Under the pieces are notes generated by a model that worked only from the letters and a program-made list of their open reading frames with translations, did not search any database and had not been told where the DNA came from. From Nitrospirota bacterium (GTDB taxonomy: Bacteria > Nitrospirota > Thermodesulfovibrionia > Thermodesulfovibrionales > JdFR-85), in contig JAYWMQ010000017.1 in assembly GCA_035873375.1 (NCBI GenBank), forward strand, positions 728 through 64,727: a DNA stretch of 64,000 nt. The letters run 5' to 3'. The translations under genes were made by a program, and so were the position numbers. Below are positions 417-45,578 of this stretch, in pieces. Position 1 is the stretch's first letter, and every line of letters starts with the position of its first letter.

Positions 417-495
417 GATACCCTCCTTTTTTGAATGTTTGAATTTCTTGAAAACTCCTCTAAAACAGTTCTATGATTCAATTAAGATAGAAGGA

Positions 496-512
496 AGCAA
501 TAGATATGCCAA
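496..512 (-). promoter_or_regulatory. sigma54 (-24/-12) promoter candidate for the M4 protease gene
   Basis: Reverse strand reads TTGGCAT-ATCTA-TTGCT (TGGCAT = 506-511, TTGC = 497-500). GG and GC are at canonical spacing, about 80 nt upstream of the ATG at 416. A sigma54 activator gene lies immediately upstream. Confidence 0.6.
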
Positions 513-683
513 ACCGTGATGATTTGTAACGTATTGATTTGCAAGGTATTTTTTAAGAGTGTTTAATAGGGAGAGTAATTTCCTGGTGACTCCAGCGTTA
601 CTTTTTTATGACGCAGAGAGGAGGCTAAACCCTTAACCGTGGTTTTTTGAGTGCGTCAACCATCGCTAAACAGTTAGCCTGTA

Positions 684-5827: not shown

Positions 5828-5986
5828 GGTAAATATGTTAACATACGGGGCTTAAAGAGCGCACGTTTTTGCGCCTCATAAATTAATCAACCCGAGCAGA
5901 ATGCTGGCATAATAATTGCTTCTAAATTATTACTATTAAATTTTTTGTTCTGACAGCCGATAAAAGAATTAAGGAGCGTGTTTATT

Positions 5987-23430: not shown

Positions 23431-24771
23431 TTACCGGTTTTTCCTGAGGCCTTTTGAGACCATAGAATCGATTAAACCAACATTAGCCTTTATCCACCGC
23501 GAATCCCACCAGTATAAAGGAGAGACCTCGATTCCCTGGACAAGGATTCCGAAATGAAGGTGGTCTCCACCTGCAAGACCGCTTGATCCCGTCCTTGCAA
23601 TCAACTCTCCTTTTTTGACCGGTTGTCCCTCCTTTACCAGGATTTCAGACAGATGTCCATACAGACTCATCAACCCGAGTCCATGGTCTATTATCACGGT
23701 GTTTCCATATATGCCAAGGTCGCCTGCAAATTTCACAATACCTGAATTTGCCGCCTTAACCGGGGCATTTGAGACCGAGGCAAGGTCATACCCAAGATGT
23801 ACGCTCCGGCTGACAGGTTTTCCCTTATACAGGTATTCCCTGCGATCGCCATATGCAGCCATAACCTTGCTGTTCTTTAACTGCAGGAAACGCCCCTTCC
23901 AGAGCATCCGGGGTTCAGATTTCCGGCCTATTTCGCCAAGCCTTTTGACGTCCCTGTCTCTCCATTCCCCGTTGACCTTGAGGAAGGCGCTGACCGGATC
24001 GGGGAGCTCGGATTCATTAAACAATGGATAAACCACACGGTTTATAAAATCATCACTTATCCTGATGGATGACCTCCTGAAGGTCTTTTTCTTTACCTTT
24101 GCAGGCAGGGTCCTTATGGTCTGATTTCCGGCATGGTCCCGGGCTACCGCATAAAAGACCGCCTTGTCTTTTATATCAAAAGGAACAGGAAAGAAAACAA
24201 CATAATCACTGTCTGACCCGTCAGAAGTTTTGTATGCCTTAAATGGCTCTCCATCATCAATCCTTATGAAGACGGAATCAGCCCCCTCTGCCATGAGCAG
24301 GGCAACCGTGCCCATGCCCTGGTAAACCACCGACGGGGCATTCACTACCCTGAGTTTTGGAGCCACTGTATCAATCAAGGCATCTATCTTATACTCCACT
24401 TTCTTTAAAATCCCCGACTTTGCACGTACTGTAATAACTGCAGGGCCGTCCCTGAGCCCCAGGTCCTTTGGTTTTATCTGCAGTATGTAAGTCTTCTCCA
24501 TAACTGCAGGCTCATCCTGCAACAATTCCACGGATTTCAGGTCCTGGGTAACAGAGACCTCGATGGATTTCAGGTTTTTACCATGAACCGTTATGGTTTT
24601 GTCAGCAGGCAGGAGCTTAAAGGCATCTATCCCCGCTACCACTGGGGGTGGGATAAGAAATAGTTTATATGCCGTGTAAGAGAGAACAAGTATGATAAAT
24701 GGGAGCAGCAGAATCACGGCCAGTTTCTTGATCCTGCTCCCCTTCTTTTTCTGATATCCAAAACCGTTCAA
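23431..24771 (-). CDS. M23-family peptidoglycan metalloendopeptidase (membrane anchored)
   Basis: 446 aa. N-terminal TM helix and a C-terminal LytM domain with HLGYDLAS and GDHLHFG metal ligands. Confidence 0.88.
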   Translation of the reverse strand: MNGFGYQKKKGSRIKKLAVILLLPFIILVLSYTAYKLFLIPPPVVAGIDAFKLLPADKTITVHGKNLKSIEVSVTQDLKSVELLQDEPAVMEKTYILQIKPKDLGLRDGPAVITVRAKSGILKKVEYKIDALIDTVAPKLRVVNAPSVVYQGMGTVALLMAEGADSVFIRIDDGEPFKAYKTSDGSDSDYVVFFPVPFDIKDKAVFYAVARDHAGNQTIRTLPAKVKKKTFRRSSIRISDDFINRVVYPLFNESELPDPVSAFLKVNGEWRDRDVKRLGEIGRKSEPRMLWKGRFLQLKNSKVMAAYGDRREYLYKGKPVSRSVHLGYDLASVSNAPVKAANSGIVKFAGDLGIYGNTVIIDHGLGLMSLYGHLSEILVKEGQPVKKGELIARTGSSGLAGGDHLHFGILVQGIEVSPLYWWDSRWIKANVGLIDSMVSKGLRKNR

Positions 24772-27148: not shown

Positions 27149-27391
27149 GACGTCATATTATAGCCCAAAAACCTCACATTTATGCAACATTGGTTTGACC
27201 CCACCCTCCTTTTCTTGACATTTTCTTACATTTTTGTTTTAAAATAGGAAAATACTGCTACGGCAATTTTATGCCGACCTCATACAAAAGCAGGGCCCAA
27301 ATCATAACGTGATTCTATTACGGATACTTCACAGCTATGAACAACTTCACTACGTTCCCTTTGATGCAGAAGAAACACAGATAACAAAGAA

Positions 27392-40095: not shown

Positions 40096-41400
<1,305 letters not shown>

Positions 41401-41451
41401 ATCTTTAATATGGATATCTGAATCAGGTCTTTTTCTGATCGGACGCGCATT

Positions 41452-41497
41452 CCTACATTTTTGTATGACATTTTTGTAGGCCATACAAAAATGTAGG
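41452..41497. promoter_or_regulatory. three TACA-N4-TGTA palindromes; the outer pair forms a perfect 15-bp inverted repeat (putative upstream activator sites)
   Basis: CCTACATTTTTGTAT (41452-41466), GACATTTTTGTAGG (41467-41480) and ATACAAAAATGTAGG (41483-41497). Confidence 0.5.
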
Positions 41498-41540
41498 ACA
41501 GGCAGGGCTCACTGTCCCTGAAAACAGGGCATTTCACGGA

Positions 41541-41556
41541 TGGCACGAATATTGTA
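41541..41556 (+). promoter_or_regulatory. sigma54-type -24/-12 promoter candidate for glnB-amt
   Basis: TGGCAC-GAATA-TTGTA. The -24 element is perfect; the -12 has GT instead of GC. It lies ~85 nt upstream of the glnB ATG. Confidence 0.45.
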
Positions 41557-41640
41557 AATTATCGCAGACTGCCGGCAATCGCCGGATTATTGCCGGACGT
41601 AAATCTCTTAGAATTTTAAATACTACAGGAGGTATTTCCA

Positions 41641-41979
41641 ATGAAGATGGTTTCTGCTGTAATCAAGCATTTTCGGCTTGACAATGTACGGAAAGCCCTG
41701 ACGGACATCGGGGTGGAAGGTATGACCATTATTGAGGTAAAGGGTTTTGGGCGTCAGAAGGGTCACATGGAGGTATACAGGGGTGTGGAGTATGAGGTGA
41801 GATTCCTGCCAAAGATCAAGGTAGAGGTGGCCGTGACTGATGAAAAACTCGATCAGGTTATTGATGTTATTCAGGAAGCTGCAAGGACAGGCGAGATAGG
41901 GGATGGCAAGATATTTATTTATAACCTGCAGGATGTGGTGAGGATCAGGACAGGGGAGAGAGGAGAGGAAGCGATATGA
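41641..41979 (+). CDS. glnB: nitrogen regulatory protein P-II (copy 2)
   Basis: 112 aa. Canonical PII sequence with T-loop Tyr51. AGGAGG RBS. Confidence 0.95.
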   Translation: MKMVSAVIKHFRLDNVRKALTDIGVEGMTIIEVKGFGRQKGHMEVYRGVEYEVRFLPKIKVEVAVTDEKLDQVIDVIQEAARTGEIGDGKIFIYNLQDVVRIRTGERGEEAI

Positions 41980-43328
41980 TGAAAAAAGAGGACTCAGGAG
42001 TTGGAAGCCAGGGCTCCTTGATAAATGGAAAACTGGTTTTGATTTCGCTATTCACAGGTTTTCTGGTATTCCTTTCCTGCAACAGCGCATTTGCAGGGGA
42101 AGCAACGGGGATCGATACAGGCGATACTGCCTGGCTATTGATGTCCACAGCTCTTGTCATGCTGATGACCCCGGGGCTTGCCTTTTTTTATGGCGGAATG
42201 GTGAGGAGCAAAAATGTCCTCGGCACCATAATGCATAGTTTTATAATCCTGTGTATTGTGAGTATTGTCTGGGTATTGTGGGGGTATACACTTGCCTTTG
42301 GCCCTGACATAGGCGGGTTTGTTGGCGGACTGAAGTGGTTGGGCCTGCAGGGTGTTGGACAGGAACCCGCTCCACTGGCCCCAACAGTGCCCCACCTTGC
42401 ATTCATGATGTTTCAGGGGATGTTTGCCATCATCACACCTGCCCTTATAACAGGGGCCTTTGCAGAGAGGATGAAGTTTTCGGCCCTGGTGATCTTTACT
42501 GTGCTATGGACAACCTTTGTCTACTCTCCGGTTTGTCACTGGGTATGGGGGGGCGGATGGATCGGAACAAAAATTGGCGCCCTTGATTTTGCCGGCGGCA
42601 CAGTTGTCCATATAAACTCAGCCATTGCAGCCATTACTGCCGCGGTTATTATTGGAAAGAGAAAGGGGTATCTGGAGGAGGCTATAATGCCTCATAACCT
42701 TCCAATGACTATCCTGGGGGCTGCACTGCTGTGGTTCGGCTGGTTCGGGTTTAATGCCGGCAGTGCACTTACAGCCGGAGGACTGGCCTCCCTTGCCTTT
42801 GTAACAACAAACACCGCTGCTGCAGCAGCGGCCATGAGCTGGGCACTTACAGAGTGGGGCTACAGGGGAAAACCCACAGCCTTTGGTGCGGTCAGCGGCG
42901 CTGTAGCCGGACTTGTTGCCATAACGCCTGCAGCAGGCTTTGTAAGTCCCATGTCTGCCATCCTGATAGGTCTCGGTGCAGGCGTCTTCTGTTATCTTGC
43001 CGTTAATGTCAGACCGAAGATCGGATATGATGATTCACTTGATGTACTCGGCATCCATGGAGTAGGAGGTCTGTGGGGGGCACTGGCTACAGGTCTTTTT
43101 GCATCAACCGCAGTAAATTCCGGTGGTGCCGATGGCCTGTTTTTCGGAAACCCGTCTCTCTTTACAGCCCAGGTTATTGCGAGTGCTGCAACCATTCTTT
43201 ATTCCGGAGTTGTCACCCTTATCATACTGAAGGTGATTGACTGGACAATCGGACTCAGGGTTAAAGAGGAAGAAGAGGTTGTGGGACTTGATCTCAGCCA
43301 GCACGGTGAGACAGGATATAACCTGTAA
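41976..43328 (+). CDS. amt: ammonium transporter Amt (copy 2)
   Basis: 450 aa. The start overlaps the glnB stop (ATGA). It has the DFAGGTVVH motif and is multi-TM. Confidence 0.95.
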   Translation: MMKKEDSGVGSQGSLINGKLVLISLFTGFLVFLSCNSAFAGEATGIDTGDTAWLLMSTALVMLMTPGLAFFYGGMVRSKNVLGTIMHSFIILCIVSIVWVLWGYTLAFGPDIGGFVGGLKWLGLQGVGQEPAPLAPTVPHLAFMMFQGMFAIITPALITGAFAERMKFSALVIFTVLWTTFVYSPVCHWVWGGGWIGTKIGALDFAGGTVVHINSAIAAITAAVIIGKRKGYLEEAIMPHNLPMTILGAALLWFGWFGFNAGSALTAGGLASLAFVTTNTAAAAAAMSWALTEWGYRGKPTAFGAVSGAVAGLVAITPAAGFVSPMSAILIGLGAGVFCYLAVNVRPKIGYDDSLDVLGIHGVGGLWGALATGLFASTAVNSGGADGLFFGNPSLFTAQVIASAATILYSGVVTLIILKVIDWTIGLRVKEEEEVVGLDLSQHGETGYNL

Positions 43329-43385
43329 ACGGAACCGCCGGGCCGCAGGCGGAATTAAAAATCTTGTCAAGGAGATTAAAAGGTT

Positions 43386-44066
43386 ATGCCGGTATTGATT
43401 GTAAAGAACATCCCGGTCGAAGGGCCGGGAACGATTGAGGACTTTCTCAAGGACAAGGGTATTTCCTATACCATACTCGAGCTCTCAAAGGGCGAGCTGA
43501 TTACCGACACAGGGGAGTATTCGCATCTGATAGTAATGGGTGGACCGATGGCTGTTTACGAGATGGACAGATACGCCTACCTCCGTCAGGAGACGGACTT
43601 GATAAAGGACTTCATTAACAGGGGCAAGTCCGTCCTTGGTGTCTGCCTGGGAGCCCAAATGGTCGCTCATTGCCTTGGGGCAAGGGTTTATCCCGGTGAT
43701 GTCAAGGAGGTAGGCTGGTATAAGGTTGACATAACACCTGAGGGAATGGAAGACGAGGTCTTCTCAACCATTGCGATTGACGGGAAACCCGTTGCAGAGG
43801 TCTTTCAGTGGCACGGTGACACCTTTGACCTGCCTGAAGGCGCGGTAAGGATTGCCTCGTCATCAGCCTATCCCAATCAGGCATTCAGGTACGGCAGCCG
43901 GGTATATGCCCTGCAGTTTCATATAGAGGTTACACCGGAGATACTCAGGGAATGGTTTAAGGACGAAGAAGGGGTTGACGTTGAAGAGATGCTTGCGCAT
44001 ACGCAGAAGATATACCCTGAATATCATAAAAGGGCAATGAATTTTTATGATAAATTTTTTTCTTGA
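43386..44066 (+). CDS. class I glutamine amidotransferase (GATase1) domain protein
   Basis: 226 aa. Nucleophile elbow GVCLGAQ and a distal His (QFHIEVT). Confidence 0.85.
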   Translation: MPVLIVKNIPVEGPGTIEDFLKDKGISYTILELSKGELITDTGEYSHLIVMGGPMAVYEMDRYAYLRQETDLIKDFINRGKSVLGVCLGAQMVAHCLGARVYPGDVKEVGWYKVDITPEGMEDEVFSTIAIDGKPVAEVFQWHGDTFDLPEGAVRIASSSAYPNQAFRYGSRVYALQFHIEVTPEILREWFKDEEGVDVEEMLAHTQKIYPEYHKRAMNFYDKFFS

Positions 44067-44165
44067 CAAAACTTTGTCTTGACAAAGCCGAAAAATTTAT
44101 AGTAAATTTATCGGCAAACCCAATACCGATAAACCAACGAATTTTAATTCTTTAGGAGGTAGTCT

Positions 44166-45578
44166 ATGACGCCAAAGGATGTCTTAACGTTTGCTCAGGA
44201 AAACGACGTAGTAATGGTTGACTTCAAGTTCATTGATTTTCCAGGGGTATGGCAGCACTTTTCAGTACCTGTTGATGAACTGAAAGAAGAGACTTTTGAA
44301 GAGGGTGTTGGTTTTGACGGCTCATCCATAAGGGGCTGGCAGGCAATCAATGCATCGGATATGCTGATTATTCCTGACCCTGAGACCACAATGCTTGATC
44401 CATTCAGAAAATACCCGACTCTCGGTCTTGTCTGCAACATTGTAGACCCGATTACCAAGGAACCTTACTCAAGAGATCCAAGATACATCTCACAGAAGGC
44501 AGTTCAGTATCTCAAGTCCACAGGGTTAGGTGATACTGCATACTTTGGCCCGGAGGCAGAGTTTTTTATCTTTGACGACATAAGGTTTGACCAGAATGCC
44601 CAGAGCGGCTATTACTTTATTGATTCAAAAGAAGGCATCTGGAACTCCGGAAAGGATGAGGGCCCCAACCTCGGTTACAAACCAAGACACAAGGAGGGGT
44701 ATTTCCCTGTACCGCCTACAGACAGCCTTGAGGATTTAAGGACGGAGATGGTCGTTATAATGCAAAGGTGTGGAATACATATCGAAGCCCAGCACCACGA
44801 GGTGGCAACAGCAGGCCAGGGCGAGATTGACATGAGATTCTCCCCCCTTGTAAATATGGCCGACAAGCTCATGCTGTTCAAATACATAGTCAAGAACGTG
44901 GCCCATGCACATGGAAAGACTGCTACCTTCATGCCAAAGCCCATCTTTGAAGACAATGGCTCAGGAATGCACACCCACCAGAGCATCTGGAAGGATGGCA
45001 AACCCCTGTTTGCAGGTAATGAATACGCAGGCCTCAGTGAGATGGCGCTTCACTACATCGGAGGACTTCTGAAACATGCCAGGGCGCTTGCCGCACTCAC
45101 AAACCCCACAACCAATTCATACAAGAGACTTGTTCCGGGGTTTGAGGCACCGGTTAATCTTGCATATTCAGCAAGAAACCGCTCTGCGGCAATAAGGATT
45201 CCAATGTATTCTCCTTCTCCAAAGGCAAAGAGGGTGGAGGTAAGATTCCCGGATCCCTCATGCAACCCCTATCTTGCCTTTGCAGCATTGCTGATGGCCG
45301 GCCTTGACGGAATAGAGAACAAGATTGATCCCGGCGAGGCACTTGATAAGGACCTCTATGAGCTTCCGCCAGAGGAACTCTCAAAGGTACCCCAGATGGT
45401 AGGCAGCCTTGATGAGGCACTTGAGAGTCTTGAAAAAGACCATGAGTTCCTGCTCAAGGGAAATGTCTTCACTGAAGATGCACTTACGACATGGATAAAA
45501 TACAAGAGAGAGAACGAGGTTAATGAACTGAGGCTCAGGCCTCACCCCTATGAGTTCTTCCTTTACTACGATATATAA
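44166..45578 (+). CDS. glnA: glutamine synthetase type I
   Basis: 470 aa. [21 protein letters not shown], and [17 protein letters not shown] blocks. AGGAGG RBS. Confidence 0.96.

Follow-up and report, generated by a model that had tools for sequence, protein, structure and literature searches.

What function could be served by three short palindromes packed into the spacer between serS and glnB of an uncultured Nitrospirota bacterium? We addressed this question in a 64,000-nt stretch of contig JAYWMQ010000017.1 (GenBank assembly GCA_035873375.1), referred to here in its entirety as the window, in which the palindromes lie between serS (40135-41400, + strand) and the PII gene glnB (41641-41979, + strand). 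Our analysis indicates that they are probably docking sites for a NifA-like activator and together form the enhancer of a sigma-54 promoter driving a glnB-amt-amidotransferase-glnA operon. The sites recur non-randomly, are conserved at a fixed geometry, are associated with nitrogen genes and with an activator gene, and are followed by a promoter match.

Between 41452 and 41497 the spacer reads CCTACATTTTTGTAT-GACATTTTTGTAG-GCC-ATACAAAAATGTAGG and contains three 12-bp cores of the form TACA-W4-TGTA, located at 41454-65, 41467-78 (a GACA variant with one mismatch) and 41484-95. Taken with their flanks, the sites span 41452-41467 (site A, CCTACATTTTTGTATG), 41465-41480 (site B, ATGACATTTTTGTAGG) and 41482-41497 (site C, CATACAAAAATGTAGG). 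All three palindromes listed in the initial annotation are present, although the middle 14-mer had been placed one base off and occupies 41466-79 rather than 41467-80. The perfect 15-bp inverted repeat that it described was recovered exactly, formed by the outer arms at 41452-66 and 41483-97.

Downstream of the array, a sigma-54-type promoter, TGGCAC-GAATA-TTGTA (TGGCACGAATATTGTA), occupies 41541-41556 on the + strand, with GG at -25/-24 and GT at -13/-12. It lies 44 nt past the array and 85 nt ahead of the glnB ATG at 41641, in line with the distances of about 45 and 85 nt given earlier. Transcription of glnB would start near 41567 and produce a leader of approximately 74 nt; relative to this predicted start, the centres of sites A, B and C fall at about -107.5, -94.5 and -77.5. 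Scored with a matrix derived from 87 published Desulfovibrio vulgaris promoters (training range 8.7-21.6 bits), the promoter reaches 12.7 bits and ranks fifth in the window. Because shuffles of the window yield about 3.3 sigma-54 sites above 12 bits, the match is persuasive only in context, through its position, its orientation and the adjoining enhancer.

The genes behind this promoter share one strand and are separated by short gaps over 41641-45578: glnB is followed by amt (41976-43328, +), a class-I glutamine amidotransferase gene (43386-44066, +) and glnA (44166-45578, +), the last gene of the operon. These assignments, like that of serS, derive from Pfam and NCBIfam matches. The gene order from glnB to glnA recurs in five of the loci that we compared (L166, L167, L171, L174 and L175), and an exact-sequence look-up of the window GlnB matched no record.

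A short, AT-rich core such as this one could in principle recur by accident in AT-rich intergenic DNA, but when the 240-bp serS-glnB spacer was resampled with first-order statistics, copies averaged 0.015 per trial and three copies arose in none of 5,000 trials. Across the window, TACAWWWWTGTA with at most one mismatch was found seven times against 1.46 expected, a number reached in 0 of 100 shuffles, and six of the seven matches sit in three intergenic regions adjoining the activator gene and the two PII/amt operons. To estimate motif density, we pooled the window with 160 loci (80 activator loci and 80 metagenomic amt loci) and defined a nitrogen-gene class as intergenic DNA up to 450 bp upstream of genes for enhancer-binding proteins (EBPs), PII, amt, glnA and nifH. 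The density was 1.63 per kb in this class (17.5 times the expectation from composition), compared with 0.134 per kb in other intergenic DNA (2.2 times) and 0.021 per kb in coding DNA (0.8 times). The regions upstream of nitrogen genes thus exceed other intergenic DNA about 12-fold in motif density; the copies are in addition conserved in relatives, leaving accidental repetition with next to no probability. The density contrast, the conservation and the regulon-like positions agree with the nitrogen-regulon operator proposed in the initial annotation.

Comparison with related loci revealed which features of the array are maintained. Locus L166 carries the orthologous serS-glnB spacer at 93% identity, with every TACA and TGTA retained and all array substitutions confined to the W4 spacers or the flanks. 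Site B is identical there, the W4 of site C has changed from AAAA to ATTT between an intact TACA and TGTA, and the sigma-54 promoter is invariant. More distant Nitrospirota (L172, L174 and L175) rebuild the array from different spacer sequences, with site positions held within 3 bp. Relative to the predicted start, the site centres lie at -107.5, -94.5 and -77.5 in the window and L166, at -107.5, -93.5 and -76.5 in L172, at about -109.5, -96.5 and -80.5 in L174, and at -93.5 and -76.5 in L175, which has two sites. In all Nitrospirota relatives the proximal site thus falls between -76.5 and -80.5. Both L172 and L174 show the site order TACA..TGTC, GACA..TGTA, TACA..TGTA, in which the GACA variant stays in the middle, and sigma-54-like promoters follow the arrays of L172, L174 and L175 at a distance of about 45 nt. 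The motif is accordingly present in orthologous promoters, and the retained site positions relative to the promoter support the enhancer-plus-sigma-54 geometry suggested earlier.

The same comparison bears on whether the 15-bp inverted repeat is instead an RNA hairpin that ends or stabilises the serS transcript, with the motif as its by-product. The predicted RNA fold is strong (-47.6 kcal/mol, z = -4.6) and the element lies 52 nt past the serS stop codon, as would suit such a role. However, no T-run follows the stem and a scan showed no terminator-like site, while Rfam offered no family, only sub-threshold miRNA and algC noise. In L166 the long stem between arms A and C retains 12 of its 15 pairs, and no compensating change offsets the loss, yet TACA and TGTA are kept site by site. 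The long inverted repeat with complementary outer arms is absent from the L172 and L174 arrays, which follow a cation/H+ antiporter gene and amt, respectively, rather than serS. Furthermore, the motif copies at 31954-32006 lie upstream of divergent genes, where no transcript ends. We therefore rejected an intrinsic serS terminator or RNA element, for which a T-run, an Rfam match and compensating stem changes are all lacking, and regard the hairpin explanation as very improbable. Since distant relatives keep the sites and their geometry without complementary arms, the conserved object is, judged by this comparison, a set of protein-sized palindromes at fixed promoter distances and not an RNA hairpin.

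If the palindromes are enhancer sites, similar arrangements might be expected elsewhere in the window, and the initial annotation had indeed pointed to copies before the other PII/amt operon and before the activator gene. We located these at 31956, 31974 and 31993 and at 27227, respectively. The second operon (28991-31855, - strand) comprises a gene for a 64-aa protein consisting of an HTH_8 helix-turn-helix domain only (31661-31855, Pfam; the first gene), a gene for a 238-aa secreted protein that bears a signal peptide and matches nothing in Pfam (30810-31526), amt (29363-30760) and a PII gene (28991-29329), the last two identified by Pfam and NCBIfam; it is syntenic in L161-L165 and L171-L173. 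Its three motif copies span 31954-32006 (cores 31956-67, 31974-85 and 31993-32004, the third being weaker), with centres at about -79.5, -97.5 and -116.5. A conserved sigma-54 promoter, TGGCACGGTTTTAGC, at 31894-31908 (- strand) scores 15.1 bits, the third-best match in the window, and lies 46 nt from the array, such that the promoters of both operons follow their arrays at 44-46 nt. Between enhancer and promoter, an exact integration host factor (IHF) consensus site, AATCAAcaggTTA, occupies 31914-31926 (- strand). Across the five syntenic loci L161-L165, the sites, the IHF box and the promoter form near-invariant blocks, whereas the flanks drift.

Before the activator gene, a motif copy, CTTACATTTTTGTTTT, occupies 27225-27240, just past a TTGACA hexamer at 27215-20, and the block CTTGACATTTTCTTACATTTTTGTTTTAAA in this region is invariant in five relatives. 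We considered whether this TTGACA could belong to a sigma-70 promoter of the activator gene and dismissed the idea, as the scan was unsupportive, with a spacing of 18-19 nt and a poor -10 element. Taken together, the activator and the two operons would constitute a small nitrogen regulon resembling that of DVU1949, a single-component EBP of D. vulgaris (PMC4641369).

The candidate binding protein is encoded at 27392-28954 (+ strand) and combines a GAF domain, a sigma-54 AAA+ domain with GAFTGA in its translation, and an HTH_8 domain; Pfam identified no receiver domain. It passes the NifA equivalog model TIGR01817 marginally (530.9 bits against a cutoff of 528.85), and no nif genes were found among the annotated parts of the window, where the targets are ammonium assimilation genes. 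By BLASTP, its DNA-binding domain matches that of DVU1949 over 41 aa with 46% identity and 80% positives (E = 4e-13). The recognition helix is nearly identical to that of DVU1949 (LTPRQMGYRI) and carries TPRQ-GYRI as in NifA.

Homologous activators in other lineages adjoin the same motif. The closest homologue found among the GTDB representative genomes (69% identity) is encoded in L001, labelled as a Desulfobacteraceae metagenome-assembled genome, directly upstream of nifH-nifI1-nifI2 (L001 4874-8562). This locus contains four motif copies against 0.14 expected: two stand before the activator gene, where a perfect sigma-54 promoter accompanies them, and two, together with a third weaker copy and another sigma-54 promoter, stand before nifH. 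Such an arrangement suggests that in some lineages the regulator probably also controls nitrogenase. Motif pairs, often 30-31 bp apart, flank activator genes in Desulfobacterota, Spirochaetota, Acidobacteriota and Latescibacterota (L001, L004-L009, L011, L014, L019, L021, L041, L094 and L116), and zero copies occur in the proteobacterial NifA, VnfA and AnfA loci among the 80 activator loci. Among the 80 metagenomic amt loci, at least nine have copies 60-120 bp before a strong amt-glnB sigma-54 promoter, and a further three show triple arrays.

These elements can be combined into a proposed mechanism. Dimers of the NifA-family activator would bind the sites near -107, -94 and -77, and three dimers would together make up the six-subunit active AAA+ ring, analogous to the three-site enhancer of NorR. 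The ring would then contact sigma-54 RNA polymerase at TGGCAC-N5-TTGT and use ATP to open the promoter. NifA proteins read nitrogen status through the GAF domain and/or PII; here, too, opening would occur when fixed nitrogen is scarce, with the signal probably entering via the GAF domain and/or PII. The same activator would act on the second operon and on its own gene. In this scheme we infer the identity of the binder, the assembly of three dimers into a hexamer, the signal and the transcription start.

Several observations weigh against this assignment. The sigma-54 score of the glnB promoter is by itself not above chance in the shuffles, and the site carries GT rather than GC at -12; GG and the 10-nt spacing do match, and GT at -12 is found in several published D. 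vulgaris sigma-54 promoters too. The IHF consensus is absent between the enhancer and the glnB promoter, although the distance is short. With a Desulfovibrionales site matrix, constructed from 101 predicted DVU1949 sites transcribed from Additional file 4 of PMC4641369, the window sites score 7.6-12.7 bits, whereas the training sites range over 8.5-19.2; of the three glnB sites, two lie under the training minimum of 8.5, although the TACA-W4-TGTA core matches. The low scores arise because the flanks differ: at position 2 the matrix favours T and the Nitrospirota sites carry C/A, and at position 15 it favours A against their G/T. Moreover, the DVU1949 regulon is itself a computational prediction (PMC4641369). 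Activators adjoining the motif also carry rather different recognition helices (ERVMGLR, ERIINYK), which weakens the link between helix and motif specificity. Finally, the nearby 64-aa HTH protein has a very similar DNA-binding domain and could bind or share the sites.

This 64-aa protein, here termed the mini-HTH, consists of a NifA/Fis-type HTH_8 domain only and is 51% identical to the DNA-binding domain of the activator. Its family comprises 433 homologues, which measure 53-97 aa among the 120 listed, are named as Nitrospirae, Thermodesulfovibrionales or Dissulfurispira, and share an invariant helix, ITERMIGYKI, as well as an invariant segment, AAR.LGITERMIGYKI.KYGI. In every context examined (the window, L161-L165 and L171-L173, including locus L171 of the complete Dissulfurispira thermophila genome), it is encoded by the first gene of a mini-HTH-secreted protein-amt-PII operon. 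Stand-alone homologues were not found in the 160 loci of the genome and metagenome scans and surfaced only in the protein search. Because motif-adjoining activators elsewhere carry similar ER[IVM][IM] helices, the mini-HTH plausibly recognises the same sites.

Could the palindromes then be true nitrogen operators bound by something other than the activator, either the mini-HTH or an NtrC-type regulator encoded elsewhere? The NifA-type DNA-binding domain of the mini-HTH, its invariant helix and the position of its gene directly behind such sites in the contexts examined all speak for the first candidate, and the NtrC-like DVU3220, which also binds the D. vulgaris amt-glnB promoter (PMC4641369), lends some credit to the second. 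Nevertheless, the mini-HTH cannot serve as the AAA+ activator on which a sigma-54 promoter depends; the motif also occurs in phyla whose fetched loci contain no mini-HTH and show the full-length activator as the only conserved neighbour; and NtrC half-sites are absent. We accordingly judge a different binder to be unlikely and retain the NifA-like activator as the candidate.

A more tentative proposal, which we hold with considerably more doubt than confidence, assigns the mini-HTH the role of a competitor at the enhancer sites. Once the operon is switched on, the protein could accumulate and occupy TACA-W4-TGTA without activating, so that the response would be damped or limited in time. If true, this would represent built-in negative feedback at a bacterial enhancer. 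A broader version, offered with the same hesitation, holds that an activator of the NifA clade, rather than NtrC, was the ancestral master regulator of nitrogen; this activator could use a compact ACA-N4-TGT site and extend over Nitrospirota, Desulfobacterota, Spirochaetota, Acidobacteriota and Latescibacterota.

The array might also, or even mainly, serve as an operator over a sigma-70 promoter. Enteric glnAp1/glnAp2 provides the precedent for such a dual design, with NtrC repressing at glnAp1; binding at the array would shut a basal promoter while activating the sigma-54 promoter downstream. Consistent with this idea, nine of twelve sigma-70 positions are matched by ATGACA-16-AAAAAT (41465-41492), which falls within sites B and C; at the second operon, TTGAGA-17-GATAAT overlaps the distal site; and a TTGACA hexamer adjoins the motif copy before the activator gene. 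In two relatives, glnB-amt is preceded by a sigma-70-like promoter in place of the sigma-54 one: L169 carries TTGACA-17-TATAAT (236-270) with its -35 element within a motif copy, TTGACAAAAATGTAGG, and L167 (2755-2795) has an equivalent with a weaker -10 and its -35 likewise within a motif copy. The matches in the window, however, are weak and no commoner than in shuffles of comparable size, and TTGACA contains GACA, so that some overlap is expected from sequence. The L167 and L169 examples suggest that the same sites can also act as repressing operators, but for the window we consider the dual-promoter arrangement improbable, both as an operator over a sigma-70 promoter and as a switch from basal to activated transcription.

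Further elements were noted around the array. Within the predicted 5' untranslated region of glnB, a hairpin-forming element, CCGGCAAT...ATTGCCGG, with three GCCGG repeats spans 41572-41596 (+ strand); in L166 a single change, C41576 to T, retains a G.U pair. A conserved palindrome in the activator leader, CGGCAATTTTATGCCG (27261-27276, + strand), resembles it, and the two may be copies of a common element at the RNA or DNA level. An inverted repeat, GGACAG...CTGTCC (41496-41501/41512-41517), lies between the enhancer and the glnB promoter; in L166 both of its arms have changed in a compensating manner (GGACAA...TTGTCC), and the more distant L172 shows no such repeat. In L175, the two-site array (2352-2412) sits inside a longer 16-bp inverted repeat, CTCAATATGTCCTACA...TGTAGGACATATTGAG, and the extended half-site TCCTACA/TGTAGGA of that locus is also found at the outer edges of the window array.

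Other observations concern the remainder of the window. Proteins of the 238-aa secreted type (with a weak Gcw_chp match in relatives) are repeatedly encoded directly upstream of amt (L102, L105, L115, L171 and L172), making this protein a candidate outer-membrane ammonium channel. The two best sigma-54 matches in the window, at 495-513 (- strand, 17.8 bits) and 5903-5921 (+ strand, 15.5 bits), fall in other intergenic regions; no TACA-W4-TGTA sites occur near them, and they presumably serve other activators. The Desulfovibrionales site matrix also scores high at 23702, 57800 and 63972, which we set aside as chance matches lying inside coding DNA or adjoining a porin gene, truA or an HD-response-regulator gene. 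At 33693-34610 (- strand), an IS200-like Y1 transposase domain and a DnaA C-terminal helix-turn-helix domain are joined in one gene, which occupies the same syntenic position in L161-L163; its position in several relatives suggests that it is domesticated rather than mobile.

The findings outline a testable nitrogen circuit, comprising an activator, its sites, two sigma-54 promoters and autoregulation, for uncultured Thermodesulfovibrionia-like Nitrospirota, in which regulation has so far been essentially unknown. They extend the range of a motif earlier predicted only in Desulfovibrionales to at least five phyla. A protein that pipelines would call "NifA" is predicted here to lack the textbook NifA site and to preside over ammonium uptake and assimilation, a point of consequence for the metagenome-based inference of nif and nitrogen regulons. 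The small protein reduced to a DNA-binding domain points to a possible new layer of control.

How, then, does the circuit relate to known systems? NtcA (GTA-N8-TAC) and GlnR/TnrA (TGTNA-N7-TNACA) act at sigma-70-type promoters in cyanobacteria and Firmicutes, and share with the present sites TGTA/TACA-like half-site letters and a nitrogen context. Operators of these types were rejected, as the TGTA-to-TACA gaps between neighbouring copies measure 1, 5 or 6 bp and never 8. Enteric NtrC, which governs nitrogen assimilation as its master regulator, is a response regulator that is phosphorylated and recognises TGCACC-N5-GGTGCA. The glnAp2 promoter resembles the window in having several enhancer sites about 80-140 bp upstream of the sigma-54 promoter of a gln operon, and possibly in an overlap with an upstream sigma-70 promoter. 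In contrast, the activator described here combines a GAF domain with a different site and lacks a receiver domain, and we excluded an NtrC-dependent promoter on the absence of both TGCACC/GGTGCA half-sites and a receiver domain.

The site of proteobacterial NifA, its upstream activating sequence, is TGT-N10-ACA. The window activator is NifA-like in passing TIGR01817, in domain order, in the helix TPRQ-GYRI and in having close homologues that adjoin nifH. Its sites, exemplified by TTACAAAAATGTAA, depart from the proteobacterial arrangement, as the half-sites are reversed (ACA...TGT) and stand 4 bp apart. Neither TGT-N10-ACA nor TGCACC/GGTGCA occurs in the glnB spacer (41401-41640), confirming that the motif fits neither the NifA nor the NtrC consensus, as first annotated, and TGT-N10-ACA is likewise missing from the second-operon promoter region (31856-32095). 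The activator is thus a NifA by sequence model that, at its predicted sites, fails the classic NifA site test; a literature search on NifA sites in Nitrospirae or Leptospirillum returned nothing relevant.

Closer in architecture is NorR at norVW, where three closely spaced inverted repeats, in work of Tucker and colleagues from 2010, reportedly scaffold one hexamer. Both systems pair a GAF-AAA+-HTH activator with a three-site enhancer. They differ in the NorR site (GT-N7-AC), its nitric oxide signal and its target.

The strongest resemblance is to the DVU1949 regulon, predicted in Desulfovibrionales by comparative genomics (Kazakov et al. 2015, BMC Genomics 16:919, PMC4641369), the only paper found in our literature search that mentions DVU1949. 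Its predicted targets include amt-glnB (DVU1231-1233), DVU1258, glnA (DVU3392), glutamate synthase (gltB) and its own operon (PMC4641369). Examples of the 16-bp sites in Additional file 4 are TCTACATTTTTGTAAG, ATTACAAAATTGTAAT and GTTACATTTTTGTAAT (PMC4641369), and the consensus of the 101 sites is TTTACAwwwwTGTAAA. Shared with the window are the palindromic ACA-W4-TGT core with T/A flanks, the GAF-AAA+(GAFTGA)-HTH_8 architecture with its nearly identical recognition helix, the amt-glnB and glnA targets, and a site before the regulator's own gene. At DVU1231 and DVU1258, the site lies about 78 bp before the sigma-54 promoter, or near -98, in the same zone as in the window. The window differs in belonging to Nitrospirota and in its flanks, C/A-TACA...TGTA-G/T compared with TT[T/G]ACA...TGT[A/C]AA, and adds features undescribed for that regulon, namely the fixed three-site array, the mini-HTH gene and the association with nifH (L001, L007 and L041). 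Viewed through these sequence parallels, the circuit joins a known, computationally predicted DVU1949-type regulon in another phylum and is not a new mechanism. We regard it as moderately novel: the type of motif had been predicted before, and here it appears in a new lineage, arranged in a conserved three-site geometry and accompanied by a mini-HTH.

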